This document shows positions 4,203-44,464 of a stretch of 64,000 bases of DNA, piece by piece. The DNA is from Mobula hypostoma (Eukaryota), in contig NC_086097.1 in NCBI RefSeq assembly GCF_963921235.1, positions 6,138,001 to 6,202,000 on the forward strand, given 5' to 3'. Position 1 is the stretch's first letter; the number at the start of each line of letters is the position of its first letter. The notes beneath the pieces are model-generated. The model had not been told where the DNA came from. It ran no database searches and saw only the letters and a program-made list of their open reading frames with translations. The translations under genes and the position numbers were made by a program.

Positions 4203-5024
4203 TAACAACAGGAATTCTGCAGATGCTGGAAATTCAAGCAACATACATCAAAGTTGCTGGTGAACGCAGCAGGCCAAGCAGCATCTATAGGAAGAGGCGC
4301 AGTCGACGTTTCAGGCCGAGACCCTTCGTCAGGACTAACTGAAGGAAGAGTGAGTAAGGGATTTGAAAGCTGGAGGGGGAGGGGGAGATGCAAAATGATA
4401 GGAGAAGACAGGAGGGGGAGGGATAGAGCCGAGAGCTGGACAGGTGATAGGCAAAAGGGGATACGAGAGGATCATGGGACAGGAGGTCCGGGAAGAAAGA
4501 CGGGGGGGGGGGTGACCCAGAGGATGGGCAAGAGGTATATTCAGAGGGACAGAGGGAGAAAAAGGAGAGTGAGAGAAAGAATGTGTGCATAAAAAGGAGT
4601 AACAGCTGGGGTACGAGGGGGAGGTGGGGCCTAGCGGAAGTTAGAGAAGTCAATGTTCATGCCATCAGGTTGGAGGCTACCCAGACGGAATATAAGGTGT
4701 TGTTCCTCCAACCTGAGTGTGGCTTCATCTTTACAGTAGAGGAGGCCGTGGATAGACATGTCAGAATGGGAATGGGATGTGGAATTAAAATGTGTGGCCA
4801 CTGGGAGATCCTGCTTTCTCTGGCGGACAGAGCGTAGATGTTCAGCAAAGCGGTCTCCCAGTCTGCGTCGGGTCTCACCAATATATAAAAGGCCACATCG
4901 GGAGCACTGGACGCAGTATATCACCCCAGTCGACTCACAGGTGAAGTGATGCCTCACCTGGAAGGACTGTTTGGGGCCCTGAATGGTGGTAAGGGAGGAA
5001 GTGTAAGGGCATGTGTAGCACTTG
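4203..5024 (-). mobile_element. Penelope-like element, 5'-truncated, nested in Nimb
   Basis: GIY-YIG motif GVIYCVQCSRCGLLYIGET; 3' UTR with hammerhead; taac on both sides. Confidence 0.92.
4301..4336 (-). ncRNA. Minimal type I hammerhead ribozyme motif (Penelope)
   Basis: Minus strand reads AGTC-CTGACGA-agggtctcggcct-GAAA-CGTC-GACT. Confidence 0.8.
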
Positions 5025-5495
5025 TTAACCCAGGCACAGATGTTGTTCTAAAAGCTCTACAACAGAGTCTAAGTGCTTTGGCTGCACAGTATCTAATTTT
5101 TCAAGCACTGCCGTAGCAGCAGAACCATAAGCAATACAACCATAATCAATAACTGATCTAATCATAGCTAGATATATTAAGTACATAGTTTCCCACCCTG
5201 CTCCCCAGTCACATCCAACAATACTTCTCATAAAATTTAAAACTTTCTGACACTTTTCAGTTGTTTTATCTACATGAACCCTCAAAGTAAGTCTTTCATC
5301 AAACCAGACACCTAAAAACTTGAATACCTTGACTTTTTCTAATGGAGAATCATATAGACACAATTCATAATCAGGAATCTTTCTTCTAAAACCAAAAATC
5401 ATGTATTTGGACTTAGAAGCAGAAATCCTGAAACCCCATTTATTTGCCCAGTTTTCAACTGATCTTAAAGCCTTTTGTACCTGCTTTAATATATA
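5025..5495 (-). pseudogene. Nimb ORF2 RT, C-terminal part
   Basis: WANKWGFRISASKSKYMIF...FKFLGVWFDERLT...IRSVIDYGCIAYGSA. Confidence 0.9.
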
Positions 5496-6197
5496 TGTAG
5501 CCCCCTGGTAAGCCTCAGGCTCGCTCAGCTCGCTTCCGTCTAGGGGGAGCAGCCTTCCGCCCCGCCAAACTGGGTTATCAATTTTGTGTGGATGCTGTGT
5601 GATGTACCCCACCCCGCCAAATAACAGACAATACACCATATACCATTAAATGATTATACTTTATAGATCTGACTGGAACTCTGTAATTAATAGAGATAAA
5701 ATATAAAAGGAAAGTAAAAGGCACCAAACTTATCAAAGTTGAACCGCTTCATGCACACAGTTGGAGCTCAATTAACGGATTCTTCTTTCCACCGTTCAAT
5801 CCCCTCCGACCCCCTCGACCCCCCGCCTGGGACCAACCACGGTGGTCATCCACACGAGTCTGTCTTCGTCTCCTCTCCTCGCCGAAGTCCCTGGGCCTCG
5901 GACTCCCGCTCCGGGTCCGTTCCGTCGACCAGCTTACAGCATCGCATCTCCTCTCTCTATCCCCATCATGCTTTCTGCCCAAAGCCCGTGAAAACAATAG
6001 CTTACAGATACATAAGAAAGAATAACATCAGTCTCAAATGGTTCATTCCCTCTCATCAATAATATGAGGGGGAGGGGGGAGAGGGGGAGAGGTTTTAACA
6101 TTTCAGTTATTATTACAGAAAAGCCATTTTTATTATAACATAACAAAGAAACCATTTTGTTATCCTTCACAGTAACATAAAAGAAGAAACCTCTTAC
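5496..6197 (-). repeat. 3' LTR of the Gypsy element
   Basis: Direct repeat of 8734-9445; on the element strand preceded by a degenerate purine-rich tract ggtgtgggcagag. Confidence 0.95.
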
Positions 6198-6319
6198 ACT
6201 CTGCCCACACCAAATCAAGTCGTGTCCTCATGATTTCTAAGTAACTCGCCAACGCTTCCTGCAGGCACAAAAACCCAATCCAGGTACAAACAGTGACATT
6301 GCTCCCCAAACATTGGACC

Positions 6320-6400
6320 TTACGCCCTGTTCCTCAGGTGCTACATAGGCCAAACTATCTGGGAGTTTCCTAATCCTCCGAGACCTCCGTACCCCCTCAC
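6320..6400 (-). pseudogene. Gypsy integrase C-terminal remnant
   Basis: GVRRSRRIRKLPDSLAY matches the RRSxRxRxPPxRLxY tail typical of Gypsy pol. Confidence 0.7.
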
Positions 6401-6704
6401 CTAAACCCTTCAGGCTTGGACACTACTGGGGATACTTCTGGTCTGCTTGCCAACTCCTCTCTCAATCTCTCACACATGCCCCCACCGCAACTTGGAGCCC
6501 CCTGTCCCGTGTCCAGGGCCCCGCTTCTTTTCCTTCAGGGTCCTGCTGTAACCCAGGCTGCCCACAGCTAGCCCTCCCCACTACACCTGACATAGTAGGA
6601 GAAGGGCCAAAAGTCTCTTCCTCAATCAAGGGGAAGTTAGCGAAAGGCAGCATGTACCACACATCCAGCACATCATCCTTCGAATCCGTGTTCTTCCTCA
6701 TTCC

Positions 6705-7064
6705 CTCGATCGGTAGCTGCTGTTTGATTTTCTCCAAACTGAAGCACTTAGCCTGGGCTGCCTCCGCAGCCTCTTCAGCATCCTGCAGTCGAGACGTCAG
6801 CTTCTTCTCCGACTCCTCCAACTCTCGCCCCAGTCTCAGCAGTTCTGACCCACGCTTCATGTCCATCTCCATCTGGGACGCAATTACACCACCAGCTTTT
6901 TCCAATCTGTTCTGGGTCGATTTCTTGAGTTTCTGCTGATCCTTTTGAAGGTTGGTCATTGTTTCATTTCTCTGGATTAATTAATCAGTAAATGACTGAA
7001 GTTTCGGCTTGGAATTACATTTCTCTGTCTCCACTTTGACGAGCGTGAACTCCAATTCTTCAGT
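6705..7064 (-). pseudogene. Captured sarcomeric myosin heavy-chain rod fragments (MYH16/MYH7B-like), intronless mosaic
   Basis: [14 protein letters not shown]...NLQKD, RLEKAGGVIASQMEMDMKRGSELLRLGRELEE and KKLTSRLQDAEEAAEAAQAKCFSLEKIKQQL match three separate MYH rod segments recalled from memory. Confidence 0.88.
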
Positions 7065-7084
7065 GGTTATCCAGGGCTCCGGCA

Positions 7085-7436
7085 CTTGCCTCACATCATC
7101 GTCCCCCAAGGCGAATCCAAACCCTAGGTGATCATCCACATACGCCAAAACTCCACACACCTCCATATCCCCCATGGTCTTCCTCATGCCCCATGGGAAG
7201 GTTGCAGGGGCTCCGGATATGCCCTGTGGCATCTTTTCGGATCGGAAGGATCCTAGGGGACCTATAACGGCCATGTTCTCCTTGTCGGCCTCACTCAGCG
7301 GGATCTGGCAACATCCACTCCTCAGATCCAGCACATTAAACCACGTTGCACCACACAAACAGACCATAGCGTCTTCAGCCCTCAGGCCCGTATTCTGTTC
7401 AATGACAGTGCGCCTGTTCAGAGTCCTACAATCCAC
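7085..7436 (-). pseudogene. Gypsy RT fragment
   Basis: DCRTLNRRT...[13 protein letters not shown]...[13 protein letters not shown]...LAYVDD. Confidence 0.92.
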
Positions 7437-7599
7437 ACATGCTGCCTATGTCTTCCACTGCTACAGGGCCCAGTTGCCACAAGCTCTGTCTCTCCTGGAG
7501 GTGACTTCAGTGGTCAACTCCCCTCCCTCGTGGTATTTCGGAGCATCTACTAAGAAGGTCTCACCCTCAGATACTTCCCCCAGGCTGTACCACAATCGG

Positions 7600-7885
7600 C
7601 TCTCGTTTAAATTCGTACCAGCCCAAGGTTGCTACACATGTCCTCACAAGCAAATCGAAACACGGGTGCACAGAGAGTGCCCCCATGAACTCCAGTTTCA
7701 CTGACCAATAATCGTCTTCTGAATAATCACTGGCACTGGTACCCCAAATCTCTAGTGCCCTTAATGTTGTCAAGGGTAAATGCTTCAGAAACCAGTTGTA
7801 AAACCAACTGTTCAACAACTTGACTTGCTCCCCGGTGTCGAGGATGGCTTTAGTATCGCTTCCCTCTATCCATAACGACACACGG
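7600..7885 (-). pseudogene. Gypsy aspartic protease remnant
   Basis: [19 protein letters not shown] (DTG motif). Confidence 0.85.
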
Positions 7886-8026
7886 TGGCCTGGTCCCTCT
7901 AAACTTTCAGGAATAGGGTCTTTTCCTTTCAGAAGTTCCTTGGTACATTGCTGGGAACATGCTCCCCCAGAGACCCCAAGCTGATCTCCCACTGGGCCTC
8001 CGCTAAGTTTCCCGACACCTCTCTGA

Positions 8027-8704
8027 TCAGCTGAACAACTGAGGGAGGGGCTGATCCCCTGAAATGATCCCCCGGCACTGCAAGCAAATTAGCTGCCTTC
8101 CTAGCCAGAGAAAATACACTGATAGCTTTTCTCCAATCTCCTGACACAGGTATGGAAAGCCCCTGAGGCACTGCATTTTACCTCCAGTTGAAACAGACGC
8201 TTTTTCCCCCGCTTTCAGATAACTGGCAGCTGTCACTACGGGGTAATTGACGCTGACAGTTCTAACACCGTTAACAGCCCGCCTACTCAAACTTGCAACC
8301 GATCCCTGCCGCTCTCCCTCAACCGAGCACTGCCACTCATCTAACAACTGAGGGATCAACTCCGTCCACGTCTTGTACGCCTCCGCCCCTTTAGGGGTGG
8401 ACAATATGCCAAAAACCAGGTGGAACCTGCCATAGCTGGAACATTTATCCGCAGACACTACCTCCGAATCAGACCACTCTTTCCTCTCTCTCCTAACAGT
8501 ATGGACAGCCCATGGTCCCGCCACACCCGGGGCACCAATAGACACTGGCAGTCCCACCACCAACTCGTCAGTGCTAGTCTGAATTTGACCAAAGACCTCC
8601 GGGGTACCAACAGCCACCCCACCCAACACGCATGCAGCAATAACCAGCAATCCCACAGAGACACAGCAGCACTGATTAAACAGGGCAATCACACAGCACC
8701 CCAC
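8027..8704 (-). pseudogene. Gypsy gag remnant (PNMA-like capsid)
   Basis: YGRFHLVFGILSTPKGAEAYKTWTE...LDEWQCS...VASL resembles PNMA-type gag YRRLRxFSG...PxGEExFExW...EWxCS. Confidence 0.75.
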
Positions 8705-8711
8705 TGAATCA

Positions 8712-8733
8712 AATCTCAGATGAAGCCCCCAAA
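8712..8733 (-). promoter_or_regulatory. Primer-binding site, degenerate tRNA-Pro type
   Basis: tttgggggcttcatctgagatt directly after the 5' LTR, versus canonical TGGGGGCTCGTCCGGGAT. Confidence 0.7.
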
Positions 8734-9445
8734 TGTAGCCCCTTGGTAAGCCTCAGGCTCGCTCAGGTCGCTTTCGTCTAGGGGGAGCAGCCTTTAGCCC
8801 TGCCAGACTGGGTAATCAAGTTTGTGTGGATGCTGTGTGATGTACCCCACCACGCCAAGTAACAGACAATACACCATATGCGAGTAAATGATTACACTTT
8901 ATAGATCTTACTGGAACTATGTAATTAATAGAGATAAAATATAAAAGTAAAAGGCGCCAAACTTATCAAAGTTTATCCACTTCGTGCACACAGTAGGAGC
9001 TCAATTAACGGAGTCCTCTTGCCATGATTCGATCCCCTCCGACCTCCTCGACCCACTGCCTGGGACCAACCACGGTGGTTGACCTGACACTCCACACGAG
9101 TCTGTCTTCGTCTCCTCTCCTCGCTGAAGACCCTGGGCCTCGGACTCCCGCTCGGGGTCCATTCCACCACCTAACTTACAGCATCGCGTCTCCTCTCTCT
9201 CTGTCCCCATCATGCCTTCTGCCCCAAAGCCTGCAAAAAACAACAGCTTACAGACTCACAAGAAAGAATAACGTCTATCCCAATTGGTTTGTTCTTCCCC
9301 TTATCAATAATATAACCCAAACAAGCAGAGAGACAGAACTCCTTATATGGCAGTTATTATTACAGAAAAGCCATTTTTATTATAACATAACAAAGAAGCC
9401 ATTTTGATAGCCTTCGCAGTAACATAAAAGAAGAAACCCCTTACA
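8734..9445 (-). repeat. 5' LTR of the Gypsy element
   Basis: TG...CA termini; direct repeat of 5496-6197. Confidence 0.95.
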
Positions 9446-10869
9446 TATACTTGTCGTTTCTTCCTCGTTTCCAGATTGGACCATCGTGTGCAAACAACGA
9501 TTTGCCAAATCCTGTCCCTACCTGATCAAAGGTATCGTTTATCATGACATTAAAAATAACTGGACTAATGACACTTCCCTGAGGGGTACCATTACCTATT
9601 TTAACTGACTTGGAGCTTGTTCTGCCTATTCTTACTTGAATTGTTCTTTCCTTAAGGAAATCTTTGATCCAATTAAACATTCTACCTCCAATTCCCGCAT
9701 CAGAGAGTTTAATTAATAAACCATCCTTCCATAGTGAGTCACATGCTCTTTCAATATCTAGAAATACACTTACCATTACTTCTCTATTTTGAAATGCTTT
9801 TTTAATATCATGATCTAAAAGGGCAACAGATTCTATTGTTGATCTTTCAGTTCTAAAACCATTTTGATAGGCAGAAAAATGTCCCTTATTTTCTAAAAAA
9901 TAAACAAGTCTGTTAGTGACCATTCATTCCATAGTTTTACAAAGCACTGACATTAAAGCTGTAAGCCGGTACAAACTAGGACTAGACGCATCTTTACCTG
10001 GCTTTAAAACTGGAACTACCACTGCATGCTTCCATTCTACGGGTAATTTTCCTTCTTTCCACACTGAATTAAACAAAGCTAGCATTTCTATTAATACAGA
10101 GTCATCTAAATACTTAAGCAATTCATAACACAGTCCATCCCTACCAGGAGATGTGTTTGAATCTGATTTGCCAGCTTCCTGAAATTCCTGAAGAGAGAAA
10201 AATAAATTTATAGAGCTATTATCATCCAAACTCCTGTCCAATTTCCAACGTTCCTTTAAAATAATTTCCTTTCTCAAATCACCTAACTCTCCAGAACTGT
10301 GTAATGCTTGGAACACCTCTACAAACATATCAGCCTTTTCCTCATTGGTTACAGCTTCAATATCTCCTTCCAGCAAAGCTGGGATAGATGGCTTCCTATA
10401 CATCCCTGACATTCTGCGAATGATCGTCCATAGCTGTTTTATAGGTGTCTCAGGGCCCAGGGTTCCACAAAATCTTCTCCAACTATCCCTCTTTGCATTT
10501 TTAATTACTCTCCTTGCTACTGCTCTTTCCCTTTTATACTCCATAACAATATCTAACACTGGGTACTTTCTTAATTTCCTGTAAGCTCTATTTCTGTTTC
10601 TTACTGCTGTATCACAATTTTTATTCCACCACGGAACTAATGCTCGAGCCTCAGGAACACTCCATTGCAGAATAGTCAACTGAGCAACTTTATGAATTAT
10701 AGAACAGAGGGATTCATTTCAATCGTCTATGCAGCCCTCGCTATCAGTCTCTTCTATAATATCCACAGCTTTCTCCTAGTGCTCATCCCAACAGGCCAAA
10801 GAAAAATTATACCCAGCAGCCCTCTCGTCAACTTCTACTATTAAATTTCTACCAAATCTACATAATATA
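9446..10869 (-). pseudogene. Nimb ORF2 linker and RT
   Basis: PWWNKNC...SPGRDG...WKHAVVVPVLKPGKD...YQNGFR...FLDIERACD...GTPQGSVISP...LFAHD. Confidence 0.92.
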
Positions 10870-11538
10870 TGTAAGGGGGTTTCGTCTCTTATGTGACTGT
10901 GTAGGCTAATTAAAATGGCTTCTTTGTTATGTTAAATGCTGAGAAAGTCCTCCCGCTAGCAGTCTGTTGAATCATGTTACTGATAAGATGTTATGAACCA
11001 TTTGGGACAGTTGTTATGTTTTTGGTGTATTTGAAAATACTGTATGCGTGGGGTTTTGGGGGAGAAGGCAGGAAAGAGAGACAGAGGATGGACCAGGTAC
11101 TGTGATGTCCGTTAACAGGGTCGGACCCCAAGCGGGTCGTTCGGCGAGGAGAGGAGACAGAGACAAATTCGTGTGGAGTGTCTGGTCGACCACCGTTGTT
11201 GGTCCCAGGCAGCCGGTCGAGGTGGTCCGAGGGGTTGCAGGGTGAAGAAGAAGGGTCCTGAGCTCCAACTATTTGTGCACGAAGAGATTGAACTTTGATA
11301 ATTGTGGCGCCTTTTATTTTCCTTTTATATTTTATTCTCTATTAATTATATAGTTCCAGTAATATCTATAAACCGTAAATCATTTAATCGTATCTGGTGT
11401 ATTGTCTGTTATTTGGGCAGGGTGAGGTACATCACACAGCATCCACACAAACTGATTACCCAGTTTGGTGGGGCCGAGGGCTGTTTCCCCTAGACGACAG
11501 CGAGCTGAGCGACCCTGGGGCTGGCCAGGTGGGCCACA
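10870..11538 (+). mobile_element. Solo LTR related to the Gypsy LTRs, opposite orientation
   Basis: TG...CA; tata TSD at 10866-10869 and 11539-11542; reverse-complement homology to 8734-9445. Confidence 0.93.
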
Positions 11539-12180
11539 TATAGGATACTAATCACTTCTTAGTGTGCATCTGTCCATAACATCCCTTTCCCCGACCCTGG
11601 CTAAGTTGGAGGAAGTGATTGATAAGTCTAAGTGACTACAAGTATTCTTTATAATATTAAATCTGGTAGGCCTTCTGTCGTTTAGCAGTACCATGTTGTA
11701 TTTATCTAGAAACTCCTCTACTACCACTCCATTATTATCTTTACTTTCACTACACCATACGGGAATATGGGCATTGAAATCTCCTACCCAGGTTACTGGG
11801 GATCTTACCTTATTCATAATTTCATCAAGATCTGATAACATTATCATATTACATGATTATAAAAGTTAATCAAAGTTGTTTGACCACGAGAGCTCCAAAC
11901 CTCCACAGGCACAATTTCAAGGTTAGAATTAAAATCAAGTCTTCTAAACTGGAGTCCTGTTTTTTTATGAAAGTTGCACACCCTCCACCAGATTTACCCA
12001 TTCTGTCAACTCTCAAACTATCATATCCAGGGATCACAAAATCTAAATGAGGCTTTAACCATGTCTCCTGTATACAGATCAAATCAGGCTTATCTTTAAA
12101 GTTCCAACAAATCTTCTTAATTCTTGACCATTTGCAATTAAACTTCTTGCATTCCATTGTAATATTAAAAACATTCAAAT
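11539..12180 (-). pseudogene. Nimb ORF2 AP endonuclease
   Basis: ILQWNARSL, ICIQETWL, GGGCATFI, GDFNAH, RPTRF, SHLDLSI, SD*YPI. Confidence 0.92.
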
Positions 12181-13276: not shown

Positions 13277-15927
13277 AGAACCATAGAACCATAGAAACTA
13301 CAGCACAGAAACAGGCCCTTTGGCCCTTCTTGGCTGTGCCGAACCATTTTTTGCCTAGTCCCACTGACCTGCACATGGACCATATCCCTCCATACACCTC
13401 CCATCCATGTATCTGTCCAATTTATTCTTAAATGTTAAAAAAGAACCCGCATTTACCACCTCGTCTGGCAGCTCATTCCATACTCCCACCACTCTCTGTG
13501 TGAAGAAGCCCCCCCCTAATGTTCCCTTTAAACTTTTCCCCCCTCACCCTTAACCCATGTCCTCTGGTTTTTTTCTCCCTTTGCCTCAGTGGAAAAAGCC
13601 TGCTTGCATTCACTCTATCTATACCCATCATAATTTTATATACCTCTATCAAATCTCCCCTCATTCTTCTACGCTCCAGGGAATAAAGTCCTAACCTATT
13701 CAACCTTTCTCTGTAACTGAGTTTCTCAAGTCCCGGCAACATCCTTGTAAACCTTCTCTGCACTCTTTCAACCTTATTTATATCCTTCCTTTAATTTGGT
13801 GACCAAAACTGAACACAATACTCCAGATTCGGCCTCACCAATGCCTTATACAACCTCATCATAACATTCCAGCTCTTATACTCAATACTTCGATTAATAA
13901 AGACCAATGTACCAAAAGCTATCTTTACAACCCTATCTACCTGTGACACCACTTTTAGGGAATTTTGTATCTGTATTCCCAGATCCCTCTGTTCCACTGC
14001 ACTCCTCAGTGCCTTACCATTAACCCTGTATGTTCTACCTTGGTTTGTCCTTCCAACGTGCAATACCTCACACTTGTCAGTATTAAACTCCATTTGCCAT
14101 TTTTCAGCCCATTTTTCCAGCTGGTCCAAGTCCCTCTGCAGACTCTGAAAACCTTCCTCACTGTCTACTACACCTCCAATCTTTGTATCATCAGCAAACT
14201 TGCTGATCCAATTTACCACATTATCATCCAGATCATTGATATAGATGACAAATAACAATGGACCCAGCACTGATTCCTGTGGCACACCACTAGTCACAGG
14301 CCTTCACTCAGAGAAGCAATTTTCTACCACCACCCTCTGGCTTCTTCCATCGAGCCAATGTCCAATCCAATTTACCACCTCTCCATGTATACCTAGCGAC
14401 TGAATTTTCCTAACTAACCTCCCATGAGGGACCTTGTCAAAGGCCTTACTGAAGTCCATGTAGACAATATCCACTGCCTTCCCTTCATCCACTTTCCTGG
14501 TAACCTCCTCGAAGAACTCCAACAGATTGGTCAAACGTGACCTACCACTCACAAAGCCATGTTGACTCTCCCTAATAAGCCCCTGTCTATCCAAATGCTT
14601 ATAGATTCTGTCTCTTAGTACTCCCTCCAATAACATACCTACTACTGACGTTAAACTCACTGGCCTATAATTTCCCGGATTACTTTTCGATCCTTTTTTA
14701 AACAACGGAACAACATGAGCCACTCTCCAATCCTCCGGCACTTCACCCGTAGACAGCGACATTTTAAATATTTCTGCCAGGGCCTCCACAATTTCAACAC
14801 TAGTCTCCTTCAAGGTCCGAGAGAACACCCTGTCAGGTCCCGGGGATTTATCCACTTTAATTTTCCTCAAAACAGCAAACACCTCCTCCTTTTCAATCTG
14901 TACAGTTTCCATGGTCTCACTACTTGATTCCCTCAATTCCATAGATTTCATGCCAGCTTCCTTAGTAAATACAGACGCAAAAACCTATTTAAGATCTCCC
15001 CCATTTCCTTTGGTTCCGCACAAAGCCGACCACTCTGATCTTCAAGAGGACCAATTTTATCCCTTACAATCCTTTTGCTCTTAATATACTTGTAAAAGCT
15101 CTTTGGATTATCCTTCACTTTGACTGCCAAGGCAACATCATGTCTTCTTTTTGCCCTCCTGATTTCTTTTCTTAAGTATTTTCTTGCACTTCTTATATTC
15201 CTCAAGCACCTGATTTACCCCCTGTTTCCTATACATTTCATACAACTCCCTCTTCTTCTTTATTAGAGTTGCAATATCCCTAGAGAACCAAGGTTCCTTA
15301 TTCCTATTTAATCTGTCTTTAATCCTGACAGGAACATACAAACTCTGCACTCTCAAAATTTCCCCTTTGAAGGCCTCCCACCTACCAATCACATCTTTGC
15401 CAGAGAACAACCTGTCCCAATCCACGCTTTTTAGATCCTTTCTCATTTCTTCAAATTTGGCTTTCTTCCAGTTCAGAACCTCAACCCTAGGACCAGATCT
15501 ATCCCTGTCCATGATCAAATTGAAACTAATGGCGTTATGATCACTGGAACCAAAGTGCTTCCCTACACAGACTTCCGTCACTTGTCCTAATTCGTTTCCT
15601 AACAGGAGATCCAATATTGCATCCCCTCTAGTTGGTCCCTCTATATACTGATTTAGGAAACTTTCCTGAACACATTTTACAAACTCTAAACCATCTAGAC
15701 CCCTAACAGTATGGGAGTCCCAATCAATGTATGGAAAATTAAAATCCCCTACCACCACAACTTTATGTTTCCTACAGTTATCTGCTATCTCTCTGTAGAT
15801 TTGCTCTTCCAAGTCTCGTTGACTATTGGGTGGTCTGTAATACAATCCCACTAATGTGGCCATACCTTTCCTGTTTCTCAGCTCCACCCATAAGGACTCA
15901 GTAGACAAGCCCTCTAATCTGTCCTGC
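13277..15927 (-). mobile_element. CR1 LINE, 5'-truncated, relatively young, nested in Nimb ORF1
   Basis: EN (YYRPP, GDFN, SDH) and RT (SQHGF, DFSKAFDKV, GVPQ, FADD) in long frameshifted ORFs; 8-bp repeat tail. Confidence 0.95.
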
Positions 15928-16479
15928 ACCCTTGATGCACCCTTTTTTTTGGCTACCCTTACTTCTGGAGTATTCCACAGTCTCTCACCCTCCTCCTTCA
16001 ATCTCAACCCCCGCCCCCCTTTGCAGCCAAAGGCTACAAACTAACTCTTTCCAAACACACTGGGCTGAATAAGGGGAAAAAAATAAATTAATAAAATACA
16101 AAAAATTAAACAATGAGGCCAACCAAAAGTTAAGGGACACCATGACTGACCAAAATTGAGCAGCGCCTTGACATCCAGTATCTGAGGTGGTCCAACAATA
16201 ACCCAAACCCCAAACCAACTACTCAGCACCACAACAATCTAACCTGCGAATCTGATTTCACGCAACAGTGATTAACAGAATGTACGGAGTGGCATGTGAG
16301 GCTAATAATGGAGTAATTGGAGATGGGATGTGATTTGGTAAACTTGATTAAAGATCATTGGGCTTGCTACAGGACAGTATCCAGGTCCTTGGAGTCTGAT
16401 TCCTTATTTTCACCTATGTCTGCAGAATGGTGAAGTGCCACATTTTGTCAGGAAGATTGACAAGACACGGTATATACTC

Positions 16480-17438: not shown

Positions 17439-17799
17439 ATTGATCATGTCTTCCCATCTCGTCGATTCTAGCCTCTAATCCATATTGGAAATTTCATGTG
17501 CCTTCTCTTGCCATGATCTACCATCCTTTCTAGCTGCTGAATCCTCCTCAAATTTTACACCTGTCTCTGCTTCAATGCTGCCCCTTTTAAGAGCTGCAGG
17601 TTGGCTTCTGTTCTGATTTCCTGGTTTGGGATGTTATAAGATGGCTACTATATTGGAGTCTGAACTCAAATCAGTTACAAAGAGCACCTCCAGAGTTAAT
17701 GTAGTGACAGCTGATTGGGTATTGAAATCATGACCATGAGGTCATAGTATGAATTTTTAGTATGTTGATACCTGGTCAAAGATGCAGAGTTAAATGGGT

Positions 17800-19083
17800 G
17801 CAACACACACAAAATGCTGGAGAAACTCAGCAAGCCAGGCAACATCTGTGGAAAAAAGTACAGTTGACATTTTGGGCCAAATCCTTTCAGCAGTACTGGA
17901 GAAAAAAGAGGTGAAGAGTAAATTTAAAAGGTGGAGGGAGAGGAGAGAGAAACACAGGTGACAGGTGAAACGTGGGGGAGGAATGAAGTAAAAAGCTGAG
18001 CAGTTAATTAGTGGAAGAGACAGATGGCCATGGAAGAAATAAAAAGGGGGGAGGAGCACCAGAGGGAGGCGATGTGCAAGCGAGGAGACGAGGTGAGAGA
18101 GGGAAAAGGGGATGGGAATGGAGAGGTGGGAGAGGGGGCATTACCAGAAGTTTGAGAAATCAATGTTCATGCCATCAGGTTGGAGGCTATCCAAACAGAA
18201 TACAAGTTGTTATTCCTCCAACCTGAGTGTGGCCACATCATGACAGTGGAGGAGGCCATGGATGACATATCGGAATGGGAAGTGGAATTAAAACGGGTGG
18301 CCACCAGGAGATCCGGCTTGTTCTGGCAGATGGAGCGTAGATGCTCAGCGAAGTGGTCTCCCAATCTACGCCAGGTCTCACCAATTTTCAAGAGGCCATG
18401 TCGGTAACACCAAACACAGTATGTGACCCCAGTAGACTCACAGGTGAAGTGTCGCCTCACCTGGAAGGAATGTTTAGGGTCCTGAATGGTAGTGAGAGAG
18501 GAAGTATAGGGATCTCCCAGTGGCAACCCATTTTAATTCCACTTCACATTCCCATTCTGATACGTCCGTCCACAGCCTCCTCCACTGTCGTGATGGGGCC
18601 ACACTTAGGTTGGAGGAACAACACCATACATTCCATTTGGGTAGCCTCCAACATGATGGCATGAACATCAATTTCTCAAACTTCCCTGCAATGCCCCCCA
18701 AACCATCCCCACTTCTCCATTTCCCATCCCCCTTTCCCTCTCTCACCTTATCTCCTTGCCCACCCATTGCATCCCTCTGGTGCCCTTCCCCCCTTTTACT
18801 TCCTTCCCCTTCCATGGCCTTCTGTCTCTTTCACGAGTCAACTTCACAGCTCTTTACTTCATCCCTGCCCCTCCAGGTTTCACCTGTCATCTGGTGTTTC
18901 TTTCTCCCCTGCCCCCCACCTTTTAAATCTACTTCTCAGCATTTTTTCTCCAGTGCTGCTGAATGGTTTTGGCCTGAAACGTCAACTGTAGTTTTTTCAC
19001 AGATGCTGCCCGGCCTGCTGAGTTCCTCCAACATTTTGTGTGTGTTGCTTGGATTTCCAGCATCTACAGATTTTGTCTTTTTT
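17800..19083. mobile_element. Penelope inverted pair (minus arm 17800-18508, plus arm 18509-19083)
   Basis: Both arms carry the GIY-YIG C-terminus and 3' UTR, tails pointing outward. Confidence 0.88.
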
Positions 19084-19149
19084 GAGGTTAATTGGCATTG
19101 ATTTCCAGCATACGCTTTCAGCACTCTCCTCTTTTGCCACCCAGATTTC

Positions 19150-19571
19150 TAAACACAAAATACACTGCAGATGCTGGGGTCAAAGCAACACTCACAACAC
19201 GCTGGAGGAACTCAGCAGGTCAGGCAGCATCTGTGGAAATGATCAGTCAACATTTCGGGCCGGAACCCTTCATCAGGACTGAAGGGGGAAGGGGCAGAGG
19301 CCCTATAAAGAAGGTGGGGGGAGGGTGGGAAGGAGAAGGCTGGTAGGTTCCAGGTGAAAAACCGGTAAGGGGAAAGATAAAGGGGTGGGGGAGGGAGACA
19401 GGGAGGGGATAGGCAGGAAAGATGAAGAAGGAATAGGGGAAAACACAATGGGTAGTAGAAGGAGGTGGAACCATGAGGGAGGTGATAGGCAGCTGGGGGA
19501 GGGGCAGAGTGAAACTGGAATAGGGGGAGGGAGGGGGAGGGGACTACCAGAAGTTGGAGATTTCAATGTTC
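19150..19571 (-). mobile_element. Penelope 3' UTR fragment
   Basis: Homologous to 54650-54997. Confidence 0.88.
19244..19281 (-). ncRNA. Hammerhead ribozyme motif (variant)
   Basis: CAGTC-CTGATGA-agggttccggccc-GAAA-tgtt-GACTG. Confidence 0.65.
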
Positions 19572-19755
19572 AAAAAAGATCTCTAAATAATGATAACCAA
19601 TTAAAATGCTTTTAATTGCTATACTTTGTCCTAAATTGAAACTTAGGGAGGCATATTTACTGATTAGTATTTGAGAACTTATTTATTTCAATTGGTCAAG
19701 TCATAATCAGCTTTCTTTTTGATTGGTCTGCTTGCTGCTTCACAAACAAACTTAC

Positions 19756-19795
19756 TGACTGGTGCTGAGTTTGGATCATACGGCTGCTGTAACAT
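19756..19795 (-). CDS. Candidate host exon (40 nt)
   Basis: ttctgttcaAG / GTAAGT; reads MLQQPYDPNSAPV; phase-compatible with neighbouring candidates. Confidence 0.25.
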
Positions 19796-20242
19796 CTTGA
19801 ACAGAATGCTATTTATGCTTTAACACTAACAATAGAATTTAACAGGAATAGTGCAGTTCATGTGTGGCAGGGAGAGGAAATTTATTTGGCAGGAAGGGTC
19901 TGTGCAGATCAGAATATGACAAAAAGCTCACTAATTACATCTTCTATGATCACATTGTAGTGCCAATAATGAGAAGGCCTGTGACCTTGTCAAGAAGGTG
20001 GATGGGTCCTGGTTCCCTGTATAATTGGATAGTTGATTAAATGCTTGCAAAATATGGCCACCATTCCCCTGTATGTATGGCCTGTAGATCCTTGAGACTT
20101 TTGATATACTATTAAAACTCAGTTGAAATTGAAGCTGATGGCCTTTAATTGTAAGGAGAATCTCAAATACGTCTGGTTCCACTTTATGACGTTATTCTAT
20201 ACAGGACTCCATTTGGAGAGCTCCATCTATCGCAAATGCTTT

Positions 20243-20562
20243 ATCACAAGATCACAAGACAAAGGAGCAGGAGTAGGCCATTCAGCCCATCAAGTCTACT
20301 CCGCCACTCCACCATGAGCTGAACTATTCTCCTATCTAGTTCCAATTTCCAGCTTTTTCCCCACATCCCTTGATACCTTGACTAATTAGATACCTATCAA
20401 TCTCCTCCTTAAAGACCCTTAATGATCAGGCCTCCCCAGCTGTATGTGGCAACGAATTCCATAAATCCATCACCCTCTGGCTAAAAAAATTTCTCCTCAT
20501 CTCTGTTTTAAATGGATACCCTCTAATTCTAAGACTGTGGCCTCTTGTCCTGGACTCACCCA
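20243..20562 (-). mobile_element. CR1 3' fragment
   Basis: (atcacaag)n tail and CR1 3' UTR/ORF2 end. Confidence 0.85.
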
Positions 20563-28669: not shown

Positions 28670-29741
28670 GAAACATAGAAACATAGAAACATAGAAAATA
28701 GGTGCAGGAGTAGGCCATTTGGCCCTTCGAGCCTGCACCGCCATTTATTATGATCATGGCTGATCATCCAACTCAGAACCCAGCCTTCCCTCCATACCCC
28801 CTGACCCCTGTAGCCACAAGGGCCATATCTAACTCCCTCTTAAACATAGCCAATGAACTGGCCTCAACAGTTTGCTGTGGCAGAGAATTCCACAGATTCA
28901 CCACTCTCTGTGTGAAGAAGTTTTTCCTAATCTCGGTCCTAAAAGGCTTCCCCTCTATCCTCAAACTGTGACCCCTCGTTCTGGACTTCCCCAACATCGG
29001 GAGCAATCTTCCTGCATCTAGCCTGTCCAATCCCTTTAGGATCTTTTACGTTTCAATCAGATCCCCCCTCAATCTTCTAAATTCCAACGAGTACAAGCCC
29101 AGTTCATCCAGTCTTTCTTCATATGAAAGACCTGCCATCCCAGGAATCAATCTGGTGAACCTTCTTTATACTCCCTCTATGGCAAAGATGTCTTTCCTCA
29201 GATTAGGGGACCAAAACTGCACACAATACTCCAGGTGTGGTCTCACCAAGGCCTTGTACAACTGCAGTAGTACCTCCCTGCTCCTGTACTCGAATCCTCT
29301 CGCTATAAATGCCAGCATACCGTTCGCCTTTTTCACCGCCTGCTGTACCTGCATGCCCACTTTCAATGACTGGTGTATAATGACACCCAGGTCTCGTTGC
29401 ACCTCCCCTTTTCCTAATCGGCCACCATTCAGATAATAATCTGTTTTCCTATTTTTGCCACCAAAGTGGATAACTTCACATTTATCCACATTAAATTGCA
29501 TCTGCCATGAGTTTGCCCACTCACCCAACCTATCCAAGTCACCCTGCATCCTCTTAGCATCCTCCTCACTGCTAACACTGCCACCCAGCTTCGTGTCATC
29601 CGCAAACTTGGAGATGCTGCATTTAATTCCCTCATCCAAGTCATTAATATATATTGTAAACAACTGGGGTCCCAGCACTGAGCCTTGCGGTACCCCACTA
29701 GTCACCGCCTGCCATTCTGAAAAGGTCCCGTTTATTCCCAC
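28670..29741 (-). mobile_element. Young CR1, 5'-truncated
   Basis: SGVPQGSVLGPQLFTIYINDLD...FADD; (tttctatg)n tail. Confidence 0.95.
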
Positions 29742-30289
29742 AAAATAAAAATATACAAAATAAAATAATAACAATAAATATACAAAATAAAATAATAACA
29801 ATAAATAAATAACTAAATCAATTACAGCATATGTATATTGAATAGATTAAAAATTGTGCAAGAAACAGAAATACAATATATTTTAAAAATTGAGCTAGTG
29901 TCCAAGGGTTCAATGTCCATTTAGGAATCGGATGGCAGAGGGGAAGAAGTTGTTCTTGAATCGCTGAGTGTGTGCCTTCAGGCTTCTGTACCTCCAACCC
30001 AATGGCAACGGTGAGAAAAGGGCATGCCCTGGATGCTGGAGGTCCTTAATAATGGACCCTGCCTTAATGAGACACTGCTCCTTGAAGATGTCCTGGGTGC
30101 TTTGTAGGCTAGTACCTGAGATGGAGCTGACTAGATTTACAACCCTCTGCAGCTTCTTTTTGCTCTGTGCAGTAGCTCCATCCAGTACCAGTACGCAGCC
30201 TGTCAGAATGCTCTCCATGGTACATCTATAGAAGTTTTTGAGCGTAAACTGTCTCTGCAGTTTCTGCATTTGCCTCACACAAGGTCTCA

Positions 30290-31174: not shown

Positions 31175-32151
31175 ACTAACACAGCTCGAACCACATCATC
31201 AAGTTCGCCGATGACACGATCGTGGTGGGTCTCATCAGCAAGAACGATAAGTCAGCATACAGAGAGGAGGTGCAGCGGCTAACTGACTGGTGCAGAGCCA
31301 ACAACCTGTCTCTGAATGTGAAGAAAACAAAATAGATGGTTGTTGACTTCAGGAGGACAGGGAGAAACCACTCTGCGCTGAACATCGAGGACTCCTCTGT
31401 AGAGATCGTTAAGAGAACCAAATTTCTTGGTATTCTCCTGGCTGAGAATCTCACCTGGTCCCTCAACACCAGCTCCATAGCAAAGAAAGCCCAACATTGT
31501 CTCTACTTTCCTTGAAGGCTGAGAAAAGTCCATCTCCCACCCCCCATACTCACCACATTCTACAGAGGTTGTATTGAGAGCATCCTGAGCAGCGGCATCA
31601 CTGCCTGGTTCAGAAATTGTACCATCTCGGATCGCAAGACCCTGCAGCGGATAGTGAGGTCAGCTGAGAAGATCATCAGGGTCTCTCTTCCCACCATCAC
31701 AGACATTTACACCACGCGCTGCATCCGTAAATCTAACAGCATTATGAAGGACCCCACGCACCCCTCATATAAACTTTTCACCCTCCTGCCATCTGGAAAA
31801 AGATACCAAAGCATTCGGGCTCTCATGACCAGACTATGTAACAGTTTCTTCCCCCAAGCCATCAGACTCCTCAATACCCAGAGCCTGGACTGACACCAAC
31901 CTACTGCCCTCTACTGTGCCTATTGTCTTGTTTATTATTTATTGTAATGCCTTCACTGTTTTGTGCACTTTATGCAGTCCTGGGTAGGTCTGTAGTCTAG
32001 TGTAGTTTCTGTGTTGTTTTACGTCGTTCAGTCTAGTTTTTGTATTGCTTCATGTAGCACTATGGTTCTGAAAAATGTTGTCTCATTTTTACTGTGTACT
32101 GTACCAGTAGTTATGGTCAAAATGACAATAAAGAGTAACTTGACATGACTT
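31175..32151 (+). mobile_element. Rex1/Babar LINE, 3' fragment
   Basis: HIIKFADDTIVVGLI...; same family as 27744-28442. Confidence 0.92.
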
Positions 32152-39277: not shown

Positions 39278-41928
39278 ATGAAACGTTTCTTCACAAAGAA
39301 GAAGGGAAGCGGAGCTGAAGGACGGAAGAGAGGAAAGTTGGAGGCGGAGGAAGCCAAGAAGTCGAGCAAGTTCTTCATGCCCTTCTTTGAAAAGCCCAGA
39401 ACAAGTAGTTTGACATGTTCCATGGAGTCGCCTGCACCTGCTACAAGTTTGTTAGAATCCGAAGGCAGATCAGGTACAAATGCGTCACAAGCCGAGGAGG
39501 AAGTCAAGTCAGATAAATCCGAGTATGATGAGATTAACAGTGAGGCTGCCACAGAGAACGTGGACATGACAGGTGGGGAAGACAATGGTGGTGGTGGAGA
39601 TGTTGAGTTTATTGACGAGATTTTACCTGACAAGATTGAACCTGACGACACTGAACCTAGTGAACTGGATGGTGTCAAAGAGCCTCGAACTGTCATACCA
39701 GAAGTGATTGAACAGCATGACATTGGACTTCTGAAGTTTGACAAGGATACTGGAAAAGCAATTCTGCCTGACGCTTTGAGAACAGAAATAATAAAGCTGG
39801 GTTCAAAGTATTTCCAGAACAGTGAGGGGCCATTCCTACCAACAAATAACCGCTCAATGAACAAAACTTGCTTCAAGAGGAAATTGGGAAATGGTCATGG
39901 TGAGGAAGTGACTCGTTCATGGCTGGTCTATTCCCCTTCTAAAAAGTCTGCATTTTGTATCTGTTGTCTTCTCTATTCCTGGTCAGACCATCAATCCTCA
40001 TTGGAGCAGGAAAGTGGATTCAACCAGTGGAAAGCACTTGAAAGGATTAGTGTTCATGAAAATGCCAAGAATCATTGGGAATGCTTCACACAGTGGAAAG
40101 AAATGGAAAGAAATTCAGCTGGAAACAGAGGAGTTATTGACATGGTATTTTAGACACAGATTGAGAAGGAAAAGCAGAAGTGGTGTGATATCTTGACGGG
40201 AATCCTTCACTGCATAAAGTTCCTTGCGATTCAGAACCTGGCCTTGCGAGGACACAGGGAGTCACTTCAGCTAGATGATGACTCCAATGAGGGAAATTTC
40301 CTTGGCTTACTGGAACTACTGGCCATCTTTGACCCTGTCATAAAAGAACACCTCACTCATTTTGGAAAGTCATCCCGGATCCACCGGGTTTCCAGAATGA
40401 ATTCATCCACATGATCGCATCCACTGTTTACTGAGAAGCATTCGTAAAGCCAAGTACTATGGTCTCATGTTCAACTCGACTCCTGATCAGGCACACCGTG
40501 AGCAGATGTCAGAAGTAGTGAGGTATGTAGAAGTTGATTTTAAGAAAACAGTCCATGTTAGAGAGTCCTTCCTTGGTTTAATCCAGATAAGCCAGAAGGA
40601 TGCTGAGAGCTTGGTTGAAGACATCTTGAAACAGCTAGAGAAGGACGAAATGGAGCTACGAGATTGTCAGTCACAGTGCTATGACAATGCTGCCGTGATG
40701 GCTGGACACAGAAGTGGTGTTCATCAAAGAATAAGTGAGAAAAACAACCTGGCAGTGTTTGTGAATTGTGACAATCACTCACTCAACTTGGTGGGTGTAC
40801 ATGCAGCCAAGCAGGATACAATGATGGTCACCTTTTTTGCAACCATCAAAGCTCTCTGCGTGTTTTTCTCTTGTTCAACACAGCGCTGGGAAAAACTCAA
40901 AAATGCTGTGCCTGTGGTTGTTAAGTCGGAGTTTGAAACCAGGTGGAGTGCAAGGACAGAAGCAGTGAAGCCCATCAACAAGTACCTTGACGAGATACTT
41001 CAAGTTCTCCAGGACATGATAGACAATGAAAACGAGACCAGTGAAATAAGAAGTGATGCAAGGCAGCTGTACAACCGCATGTTGTGTTACGATTTTCTGA
41101 TTTTGCTAGGATTTTGGAGCAAAGTACTCATTCGCATTGACTGTATTCAAAAGAGGCTGCAGGATCCTAGCATGAACTTCCACAATGCTGTCCTGGATTT
41201 GAAAGCCCTCCAAGATCATTTTTATGATGAAAGAGAAGTGTTGATCAGTGAGGCACTCAAAGAAGGAGATGATCTCTGTCAAGAGTGGAATATTGAAGAT
41301 GAAAGACATCAGAGACAAAAGAAATGAATGGCTGATGAGAACTCGAAAGACGCTGGGTTAACAGCTGAGGAGGAAATGGAAAGAGTCACGGAGGGAACAC
41401 TCGACCATCTTCAAAGAGAAATGGACAAAAGGTTTTCTCGTTTGCACGACACTGACGCCAAGTTTGGGTTCCTTCCTGATGTTGAGGGACTGTATTATGG
41501 CGCCGACAATAATGACCTAAAGAAAAAGTGTGAAAATTTGGGCGAATTGTACAGCTCTGATGTTGATGGACAGCAGCTATATGAAGAAATTTTGGATTGC
41601 AGAATGTTGCTATCAAGGCGGGTCACATGAAAACATCAAGACCTGAAGATCTTCTTGAATTTATTGTTCATTATGGAGATGAGAGCATCTTCTCCAATCT
41701 TTGCATTGCTATTCAGATAATGCTAACCATCGCAGTTTCCATCGCCAGCTGTGAGAGATCATTCAGCAAGTTAAAACTGATACTCTGTATTTGAGAGCCT
41801 CCATGGGTCAAGGCAGACTCTGTGATCTTGCTCTGCTGAGTGTAGAAAGAGAAGAAACTGAAAAAACTGACTTTGGTCACATCATAGACCAACTTGCATC
41901 AGTGAAAGCAAGGAAGGTGCTGTTATAA
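39278..41928 (+). pseudogene. hAT transposase pseudogene
   Basis: TTF-type finger RSWLVYS...FCICC, LALRGH, GNFLGLL, YDNAAVMAG, CDNHSLNL, TRWS, SCERSFSKLKLI; has stops and frameshifts. Confidence 0.92.
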
Positions 41929-43252: not shown

Positions 43253-44086
43253 TTAGTCATAGTCATAGTCATAGTCATACTTTATTGATCCCGGGGGAAA
43301 TTGGTTTTCGTTACAGATGCACCATAAATAATAAATAGTAATAGAACCATAAATAGTTAAATAGTAATATGTAAATTATGCCAGGAAATAAGTCCAAGAC
43401 CAGCCTATTGGCTCAGGGTGTCTGACCCTCCAAGGGAGGAGTTGTAAAGTTTGATGGTCATAGGCAGGAATGACTTCCTGTGATGCTCTGTGTTGCATCT
43501 CGGTGGAATGAGTCTCTGGCTGAATGTACTCCTGTGCCCAACTAGTACGTTATATAGTGGATGGGAGACATTGTCCAAGATGGCATGCAACTTAGACAGC
43601 ATCCTCTTTTCAGACACCACGATCAGAGAGACCAGTTCCATCCCCACAACATCACTGGCCTTACAAATGAGTCGTTGATTCTGTTGGTGTCTGCTACCCT
43701 CAGCCTGCTGCCCCAGCACACAACAGCAAACATGATAGCACTGGCCACCACAGACTTGTAGAACATCCTCAGCATCGTCCGGCAGATGTTAAAGGACCTC
43801 AGTCTCCTCAGGAAATAGAGATGGCTCTGACCCTTCTTGTAGACAGCCTCAGTGTTCTTTGACCAGTCCAGTTTATTGCCAATTTGTATCCCCAGGTATT
43901 TGTAATCCTCCACCATGTCCACACTGACCCCCTGGATGGAAACAGGGGTCACCAGTACCTTAGCTCTCCTCAGGTCTACCACCAGCTCCTTAGTCTTTTC
44001 CACATTAAGCTGCAGATAATTCTGCTCACACCATGTGACAAAGTTTCCTACCGTAGCCCTGTACTCAACCTCATCTCCCTTGCTGA
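43253..44086 (-). mobile_element. Rex1 LINE, 3' fragment with (atgact)n tail
   Basis: LQLNVEKTKELVVD...YKYLG...LYFLRRLRSF; same family as 61993-62572. Confidence 0.92.
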
Positions 44087-44464
44087 TGCTTTGCTCCTTG
44101 AAGATGTCCTGGATGTCAGTGAGGTCAGTGTCTATGATGGAGCTGACTGAGTTGAGTTCACAACTTTCTACACCTTTTTCTGATCCTGCACAGTGTCCAC
44201 CCCCCCACCCCCAATACCAGACGGTGATGTAACTAGTTAGGATGCTGTCCACTCTCCACTTGTGTACTTGAAATGACATTAAACAACCTTGAATCTTGAA
44301 GACAAACTGTGAGCCATTGTCAGGGGACTAGTTCTTCCAGCAAGTATGCAAAAATTTTTCATCGCAAGAATGTTTTGTGATGACAGATTCCCATGGGATT
44401 AACTTCCAACCAGTTAGAATTATTATCAAAAGGGATGAGGAAATAGTCAGGAACTTTTTTTTCT

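Follow-up and report, generated by a model that had tools for sequence, protein, structure and literature searches.

Acutely transforming retroviruses carry out v-onc transduction and have defective genomes that depend on a helper. In these viruses spliced host sequence in sense orientation replaces viral genes, and deletions occur at short homologies. Mouse ETn/MusD elements and plant large retrotransposon derivatives (LARDs) have kept their long terminal repeats (LTRs), primer binding site (PBS), polypurine tract (PPT) and packaging region, have lost pol, and reach high copy number by mobilisation in trans. Processed pseudogenes made by long interspersed nuclear elements (LINEs) are intron-free copies of mRNA fragments. 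In crocodilians, endogenous retroviruses (ERVs) captured host mRNAs, namely KIT-ligand in CrocERV29 and nectin3 in CrocERV31 (PMC4299795). Maize Bs1 and other plant LTR retrotransposons carry captured gene fragments, and read-through or aberrant template switching is invoked for their capture (PMC13317346). The subject of this study is an LTR element on the minus strand of a 64,000 nt stretch of the Mobula hypostoma genome (GCF_963921235.1, NC_086097.1, positions 6,138,001-6,202,000 of the forward strand). This stretch is referred to as the window, and all coordinates are window-based. The element occupies 5496-9445 and carries, behind a truncated pol, a piece of sarcomeric myosin heavy chain (MYH) rod. 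It is very probably one old, decayed copy of a non-autonomous Ty3/Gypsy-type family of myliobatiform rays that carries a captured rod fragment of the MYH16 lineage and was spread in trans.

The ray family shares features with each of these systems and departs from each. Like the crocodilian ERVs, it has host sequence, in its case probably mRNA-derived, between LTRs, several carrier copies, and secondary deletions that distinguish the copies; in the nectin3 case element coding sequence was also replaced (PMC4299795). The crocodilian carriers, as described there, are retroviruses (ERV4 and related) with whole ORFs (open reading frames) apparently under purifying selection, whereas the ray carrier is an env-less Ty3/Gypsy element with a decayed rod fragment and far more copies. 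Bs1 and the plant elements are likewise non-autonomous LTR elements with host gene fragments instead of pol, but Bs1 is a plant element and holds pieces of three genes (PMC13317346). The likeness to the acutely transforming retroviruses lies in the sense-oriented, presumably spliced host sequence, the defective, presumably helper-dependent genome and the deletions. Those viruses are somatic, infectious and under oncogenic selection, whereas the ray family is germ-line and gives no sign of myosin function. ETn/MusD and LARDs share with the ray family the retained LTRs, the loss of pol sequence and, probably, the other cis-acting ends and the high-copy trans-mobilisation, but their replacing sequence is of unknown or non-coding origin while that of the ray family is an identifiable myosin rod. 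The rod piece is probably intron-free like a processed pseudogene, but neither poly(A) nor a separate flanking duplication accompanies it, and it moves inside an LTR unit. Host-mRNA capture by LTR retroelements is already known, and the ray family is a clear but precedented case that adds no new principle. An earlier note on this DNA had known of no such family, and neither a description of it nor an animal Ty3/Gypsy counterpart was found in full-text literature searches aimed at this question, which did not extend to Repbase and Dfam.

The element measures 3,950 nt and is nested inside a Penelope-like element. Its 5' LTR (8734-9445, minus strand, 712 nt) and 3' LTR (5496-6198, minus strand, 703 nt) were delimited by direct-repeat comparison. 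Both have TG...CA termini, and the pair is 84.8% identical by blastn, with a Kimura two-parameter divergence of 0.148 over 697 aligned sites. The target-site duplication TATA is present upstream (9446-9449) and downstream (5492-5495) relative to the minus-strand element, as judged from restoration of the host ORF. In-silico excision of 5496-9449, which takes out the element and one TATA, produced a continuous host reverse transcriptase (RT) ORF of at least 165 aa, and excision with 0, 3 or 5 extra nt did not restore the host RT frame. The window element is a bona fide integration with a 4-nt target duplication.

The element's own RT is truncated (7116-7442, minus strand) and has its YVDD motif at 7131-7142. 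It was recognised by Pfam RVT_1 (E 1.5e-7) and, in the PDB, by Ty3 RT (4ol8_A residues 115-221 of 478, E 7e-12) and Ty3 Gag-Pol. Below these in the PDB ranking came a caulimovirus-type polyprotein (E 0.015), and no retroviral RT was found in the PDB at E ≤ 0.1. One relative, P0013, matched Ty3 RT at E 2.1e-13. These similarities place the RT in the Ty3/Gypsy type. The Ty3 RT match stops a few residues past YVDD, and Pfam detected no RNase H or rve/integrase domain in the element or among the window's 88 ORFs of at least 110 aa. The C-terminus of RT, RNase H and integrase are all absent from the window element. Because pol ends after YVDD without RNase H or integrase, the window copy is a non-autonomous derivative and not a complete member of the Metaviridae. 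About 22 codons past YVDD, in the same frame as RT and in sense orientation, lie 360 nt of myosin-like sequence, which are separated from the 3' LTR by about 500 nt of non-myosin tail. The paired LTRs, RT and YVDD motif that the earlier note had placed around or before the myosin part are all present, and the anatomy together with the TATA duplication bears out its picture of an LTR-bounded Ty3/Gypsy element in which a sense MYH rod replaces the rest of pol. It had further proposed that RNase H and most of integrase were replaced. RNase H is indeed absent, but no integrase remnant was found and the RT C-terminus was lost too.

The myosin part was described in the note by its minus-strand translation, which is present at 6705-7064 and is interrupted by an in-frame TAA at 6981-6983. 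Three rod blocks follow one another on the minus strand. The block A remnant (6912-7064) is in the RT frame, contains the TAA, and corresponds to residues ~947-996 of shark MYH16 and ~955-1004 of MYH7. Block B (6810-6911) corresponds to shark MYH16 1140-1173 and MYH7 ~1146-1182, with 21/34 residues identical to Chiloscyllium MYH16. Block C (6705-6809) corresponds to shark MYH16 1382-1413 and MYH7 ~1390-1424, with 22/32 residues identical. These include AEEAAEAAQA, which is exactly the shark MYH16 sequence. The window reads ELLRLGRELEES where shark MYH16 reads ELLKLRRELEES, a difference at 2/12 positions. The blocks are colinear with full-length MYH in a chained alignment.

The stop-to-stop ORF 6462-6980 was compared with all PDB sequences using phmmer. 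Its best score was to an MYH7(1361-1425) construct (E 6.7e-9), followed by full-length MYH7/MYH4 (E 1.3e-7 to 1.6e-7) and insect muscle myosins (E 1e-3 to 1e-2), while the best non-myosin match had E 0.78. The alignment falls in two separate MYH7 stretches, 1137-1182 and 1349-1423. The first segment (7064-6912), with X at the stop, aligned to MYH7 from residue 955 but was weak alone (5.2 bits). Two related ray proteins, P0007 and P0027, match 7064-6912 at 71-74% over 34 aa and continue as 115 aa, and block A of P0027 by itself matches MYH4 977-1091 (E 4.6e-7). Since these relatives match the first segment and extend into the MYH4 rod, its myosin origin is secured. Homology searches confirm the minus strand of 6705-7064 as real sarcomeric myosin rod sequence, with its segments in native order as the earlier note had it. 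No A-run follows the myosin end at 6705, and no duplication was seen at the myosin borders.

The same chimera occurs elsewhere in rays. An exhaustive HMMER search of 1.84 billion representative proteins (E ≤ 1e-3) matched 26 proteins. The chimera is carried by 13 of these (P0001-P0013), all of them short predicted proteins of 127-403 aa with E values from 7.8e-80 to 1.6e-10. Addition of the cluster member P0027 gave 14 chimeric gene-model proteins. P0001-P0013 have the RT-myosin-tail-LTR layout and come from four species of myliobatiform ray, on no fewer than 11 contigs of chromosome scale. The M. hypostoma models lie on five contigs (256, 162, 81, 71 and 67 Mb); the other species are M. birostris, Hypanus sabinus (three contigs) and Hemitrygon akajei (two contigs), so that copies are found in both Mobulidae and Dasyatidae. 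All 297 aa of P0001 align gap-free to 7367-6477 of the window, an alignment that takes in RT, myosin and tail and reaches 79.5% identity. P0013 spans 7613-6660, and P0006 and P0012 connect the myosin part directly to this LTR family. The myosin piece is in the RT frame in the window, P0001, P0005 and P0013.

Genomic contigs gave a similar result. Contigs of three DNA runs, from three organisms, were placed on 5200-9700 at ≥80% likeness, which yielded 17,647-20,457 contigs per run. Sites 6916, 6968 and 7069 were each covered by 26-63 different contigs per run; as contig depth is not copy number, no copy number is given. The tail/myosin border was bridged by contigs of run X5 (6514-6746 and 6527-818) and run X9 (6328-6895 and 6569-6965), and the myosin/RT border by one contig of run X1 (6900-7106), so bridging contigs came from three organisms. 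At the LTR ends, 5496 and 9445, 67-88 loose ends per end were found in runs X1 and X9, with an agreement of 0.36-0.38, the value behind 9445 being 0.37, and unrelated sequence beyond. Such discordant flanks are as expected of many different insertion sites. Record 28 of run X9 (1,121 nt) aligned at 6728-7068 only and has unlike flanks; it is presumably a less-deleted variant like P0005. Contigs of a further run, X12, which may be RNA, also fall on the element, but they are not taken as a sign of expression. The RT-myosin chimera is a mobilised family and not a one-off. The earlier note had named beforehand, as the sign of mobilisation, many LTR-flanked copies with different target-site duplications, and what the search returned were numerous copies from several rays that have the same junctions and discordant flanks.

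The copies appear in RefSeq under names such as 'myosin-16-like', 'putative uncharacterized protein MYH16', 'myosin-7B-like', 'myosin heavy chain, skeletal muscle-like' and 'myosin heavy chain, cardiac muscle isoform-like'. The Hypanus sabinus protein P0003 is annotated as 'succinate dehydrogenase assembly factor 3, mitochondrial isoform X1', and its C-terminal two thirds consist of blocks B and C and the element tail. This suggests either an element copy exonised into SDHAF3 transcripts or a chimeric gene model. P0011 of Hemitrygon akajei is a similar chimeric model.

Block boundaries were taken from chained alignments to full-length myosins in Chiloscyllium MYH16 numbering. Plain BLASTP of the copies against full MYH produced dozens of off-register coiled-coil matches and was uninformative; of the chained alignments, the large blocks alone were used. 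The relatives retain about 250 aa of rod in three blocks, A (~915-1095), B (1138-1173) and C (1382-1413). Block A is covered by P0005 at 915-992, by P0027 and P0007 at 967-1087, and by P0009 at 1034-1095. The gap between B and C (1174-1381) is present in 13/13 sequences that span it, window included. In the shark protein its two edges read ...RRELEES and ...TEELEET|KRKL, which puts it on a repeated ELEE(S/T). The A/B gap is common to the five models that span it, P0004, P0007, P0009, P0010 and P0027. The window shares an additional rod deletion with P0001, P0005 and the P0006/P0008 locus, in which ...QNRLE of block A is joined to (K/E)AGG of block B; the longer copies have ...NRLEDLQ and ...VRVEEAGG at this junction. 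Between segments 1 and 2 the relatives hold about 140 more rod residues than the window. In P0005 the RT motif and the first myosin segment are separated by about 45 residues that are missing from both the window and P0001, and these comprise more RT plus about 35 more rod residues. P0002 and P0013 have other deletions. The window copy is a deletion derivative. The note's three segments directly after YVDD are present in the window, but they are not the captured form, because the junction between segments 1 and 2 and the one after YVDD are later subfamily deletions.

For the donor, trees were built from 262 columns and nine copies with an MYH panel without MYH15; 'MYH7B_Dicentrarchus', which did not differ from a fast MYH over the columns analysed, was left out of the later trees. 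All copies fall together in a single clade (100/99), which sits on a long stem. With two MERC myosins as outgroup, which from the look of the sequences we take to be invertebrate, the copies grouped with MYH16/MYH16-like at 99/96 under LG+G4 and LG+C20 alike. In the LG+G4 tree without the outgroup, the copies took a place intermediate between MYH16 and the remaining MYHs. Batoid MYH16 sequences (Mobula, Hypanus, Pristis, Narcine) were then included under LG+C20, which gave a trichotomy, and the approximately unbiased (AU) test did not reject a clade with elasmobranch MYH16 (p 0.121). Raw identity was highest or tied-highest to elasmobranch MYH16 in 9/9 copies; for P0027 it was 90/184, versus 71-76/184 to non-MYH16 vertebrate myosins. 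The copies share further MYH16 motifs that are missing in other MYHs, such as ...QRD(D/E)... in block A. The 99/96 grouping and the motifs shared with shark MYH16 support a donor from the MYH16 lineage, at which the earlier note had guessed. Host MYH16 itself is compatible with these results and is the likely, though unproven, donor; nothing more precise than the MYH16 lineage is claimed.

The rest of the element was examined for parts that a mobile unit needs. A PNMA-like capsid region of gag (8090-8410, minus strand), inside the stop-to-stop frame 8027-8752, was identified by Pfam PNMA (E 4.8e-8, 33.1 bits against a cut-off of 25) and matched PNMA2 in the PDB at E 0.007. PNMA genes derive from Ty3/Gypsy gag. 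A protease-like frame (7567-8088, minus strand) has an LDTG motif at 7831-7839, presumably the retropepsin active site; Pfam found no protease in this frame and the LDTG motif alone was visible in the translation. Candidate PBS and PPT sequences are at the expected places. The putative PBS region (8716-8733, minus strand) directly follows the 5' LTR and is proposed from its position only, and the putative PPT (6199-6211, minus strand), directly 5' of the 3' LTR, from position and purine richness only. The 3' internal tail (6212-6704, minus strand) is common to other copies, with P0001 aligning to 6477 and P0004 to 6399. No Pfam match to the tail was found on either strand, and it has no recognisable domain. 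A 572-aa tandem-repeat protein, P0014, matches the tail at 6510-6644 (query residues 113-157, E 5.5e-7, 8 stretches). In the window copy gag, protease and RT are in three different frames. Given these frames, the LTR divergence of 0.148 and the in-frame stop, the window copy is old and dead.

The following model draws by analogy on retroviral transduction and plant LTR elements (PMC13317346, PMC4299795). In an ancestral element RNase H, integrase and the C-terminal end of RT would have been lost and about 750 nt of MYH16-lineage coiled-coil rod gained instead, sense and in the pol frame. What was packaged with element RNA may have been a myosin mRNA after splicing, or a read-through transcript driven by the LTR and spliced into exons of the myosin gene, and non-homologous template switches by RT would have joined the two RNAs. 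The chimera would have retained LTRs, PBS, PPT and gag, and therefore an autonomous relative could copy and integrate it in trans, by which route it may have reached many loci. Template jumps between similar 28-residue rod repeats would then have deleted internal pieces. Two rod deletions would be older than the known copies, and one further rod deletion plus the deletion at the RT/myosin border would define the subfamily of the window copy.

An RNA intermediate, template switching and trans-mobilisation are all inferred parts of this model, and the captured piece probably came from spliced RNA, without introns. One ground for intron loss is P0027, which has at least 113 contiguous rod residues gap-free. 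We take the exon junctions of human MYH7 to be at K974|V975, at 1033|1034, and within codons 1082 and 1390. Blocks A and C run uninterrupted across these positions, and K974|V975 falls in segment 1. Across muscle myosin genes, Kollmar and Hatje found almost all intron positions of the tail to be conserved (PMC3912159).

Several observations weigh against this interpretation. Intron loss is deduced from block length and from intron conservation in other myosin genes. No autonomous partner was found when the RT ORF was compared with proteins of near length, and no integrase was found in the window ORFs. The relatives are known as gene-model proteins, so that introns placed by the model may underlie some of their 'deletions'; this artefact cannot explain extra sequence in the relatives, and the window's own junctions are genomic. 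The Pfam profile Myosin_tail_1 (PF01576), which the note had put forward as a check, failed to match: no family was reported at E ≤ 1 for ORF 6462-6980, which is short, internally deleted and decayed. Under LG+G4 without batoids the copies were basal in the MYH16 group, and the AU test rejected a clade with chondrichthyan MYH16 (p 0.017). At the 33 columns that separate gnathostome MYH16 from other MYHs, the copies have 49 MYH16 states, 39 other-MYH states and 63 that are neither. Finally, the mRNA of a jaw-muscle myosin is not expected in the germ line. Such an odd template would favour a read-through origin, from an insertion in the gene, over simple co-packaging.

Some of these points lend themselves to other explanations. 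The silent Pfam profile and the frequency of off-register matches among coiled coils would suit a generic coiled-coil likeness, or a coiled coil native to this Gypsy lineage. The chance of this is negligible: the E values of 1e-7 to 1e-9 are to myosin only, three blocks match in colinear order, shark MYH16 has the same AEEAAEAAQA and a ELLKLRRELEES that resembles the ELLRLGRELEES of the window, and the copies form a single clade inside vertebrate sarcomeric MYHs relative to the invertebrate-like outgroup. It is more readily imagined, and still very improbable, that a LINE-made processed pseudogene of a myosin mRNA fell by chance into one Gypsy copy and stayed there, never mobilised as a unit. 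The many LINE and Penelope-like RT genes of the window would have supplied ample machinery for retroposition, and the myosin piece is fragmentary and apparently intron-free. A local event does not account for the same layout and junctions in 13 models from four species and at least 11 large contigs, or for the chimera in dozens of contigs per DNA run, and the missing A-run and border duplications and the shared RT frame in the window, P0001, P0005 and P0013 also speak against it. Capture at the DNA level, in which recombination or repair joined the element to a myosin retrocopy or gene and segmental duplication spread the product, has somewhat more in its favour, given that the RNA intermediate and the absence of introns are deduced only and that slippage in DNA replication can also delete at short repeats. 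We regard it as quite unlikely in view of the intact LTR termini and 4-nt target duplication of the window copy inside another element, the low agreement between flanks at both LTR ends in X1 and X9, and the presence of copies on many chromosomes in each species.

The identity of the donor leaves more room. An unsampled or lost MYH16-like paralog, or the myosin of another animal with horizontal transfer of the chimera to rays, may have been the source in place of canonical host MYH16. The basal position under LG+G4 and the AU rejection would fit such a donor, and an unsampled MYH16-like paralog is suggested by the mixed states at the 33 diagnostic columns. The long, neutrally decayed stem (0.48-0.70) invites long-branch artefacts, however, and with batoids and a site-heterogeneous model the clade with elasmobranch MYH16 was not rejected, while raw identity peaked at elasmobranch MYH16 in every copy. 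A donor other than canonical host MYH16 is thus possible but unlikely. Less likely again is a more specific course of events, in which a Ty3/Gypsy insertion in host MYH16 gave germ-line read-through spliced to its exons, and the in-frame Pol-coiled-coil fusion aided the defective element over its helper, for instance through multimerisation or preferential packaging, or else myosin-derived small RNAs now cross-talk with MYH16. A lost MYH16-like paralog as donor may be an added twist to this scenario. If true, it would be oncogene-style transduction by a non-retroviral LTR element, reconstructable in the vertebrate germ line.

The surroundings of the element are rich in transposons. The host Penelope-like element (minus strand) covers 4634-5491 and 9450-10718, and its RVT_1 (9444-9923 and 5028-5645) precedes a GIY-YIG endonuclease domain (4634-5047). 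The LTR of the studied element occurs a third time, in a more diverged copy, at 10870-11541 in plus orientation, about 1.4 kb from the element and in the opposite direction. This copy, 76% identical over 598 nt and with a further 65-nt piece, is probably a fragment or a solo LTR. Direct repeats at 31-348 and 4551-4867 (80-251 nt, 80-94% identity, spacing 4,519 nt) overlap the GIY-YIG region and may be tandem or terminal repeats of Penelope-like elements. Further transposon-related stretches are 13794-16040, 29169-29846, 50160-51440, 60344-60892, 40401-41324, 31516-31890 and 43626-44327. They contain more RVT_1 frames, one of them adjoining Exo_endo_phos as in a LINE, a DUF4371 frame and two ALKBH8_N-like matches. 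No cellular gene was recognised among the 88 window ORFs of at least 110 aa.

The family documents that a vertebrate Ty3/Gypsy element, and not a retrovirus, captured and amplified host sequence, probably from mRNA, and its nested deletion variants would record repeated template jumps in a repetitive coiled coil. Left unmasked, it would inflate ray myosin gene counts and orthology tables. It could be used as a dated marker for myliobatiform phylogeny, and as a case in which to test whether silencing cross-talks between transposon and donor gene.

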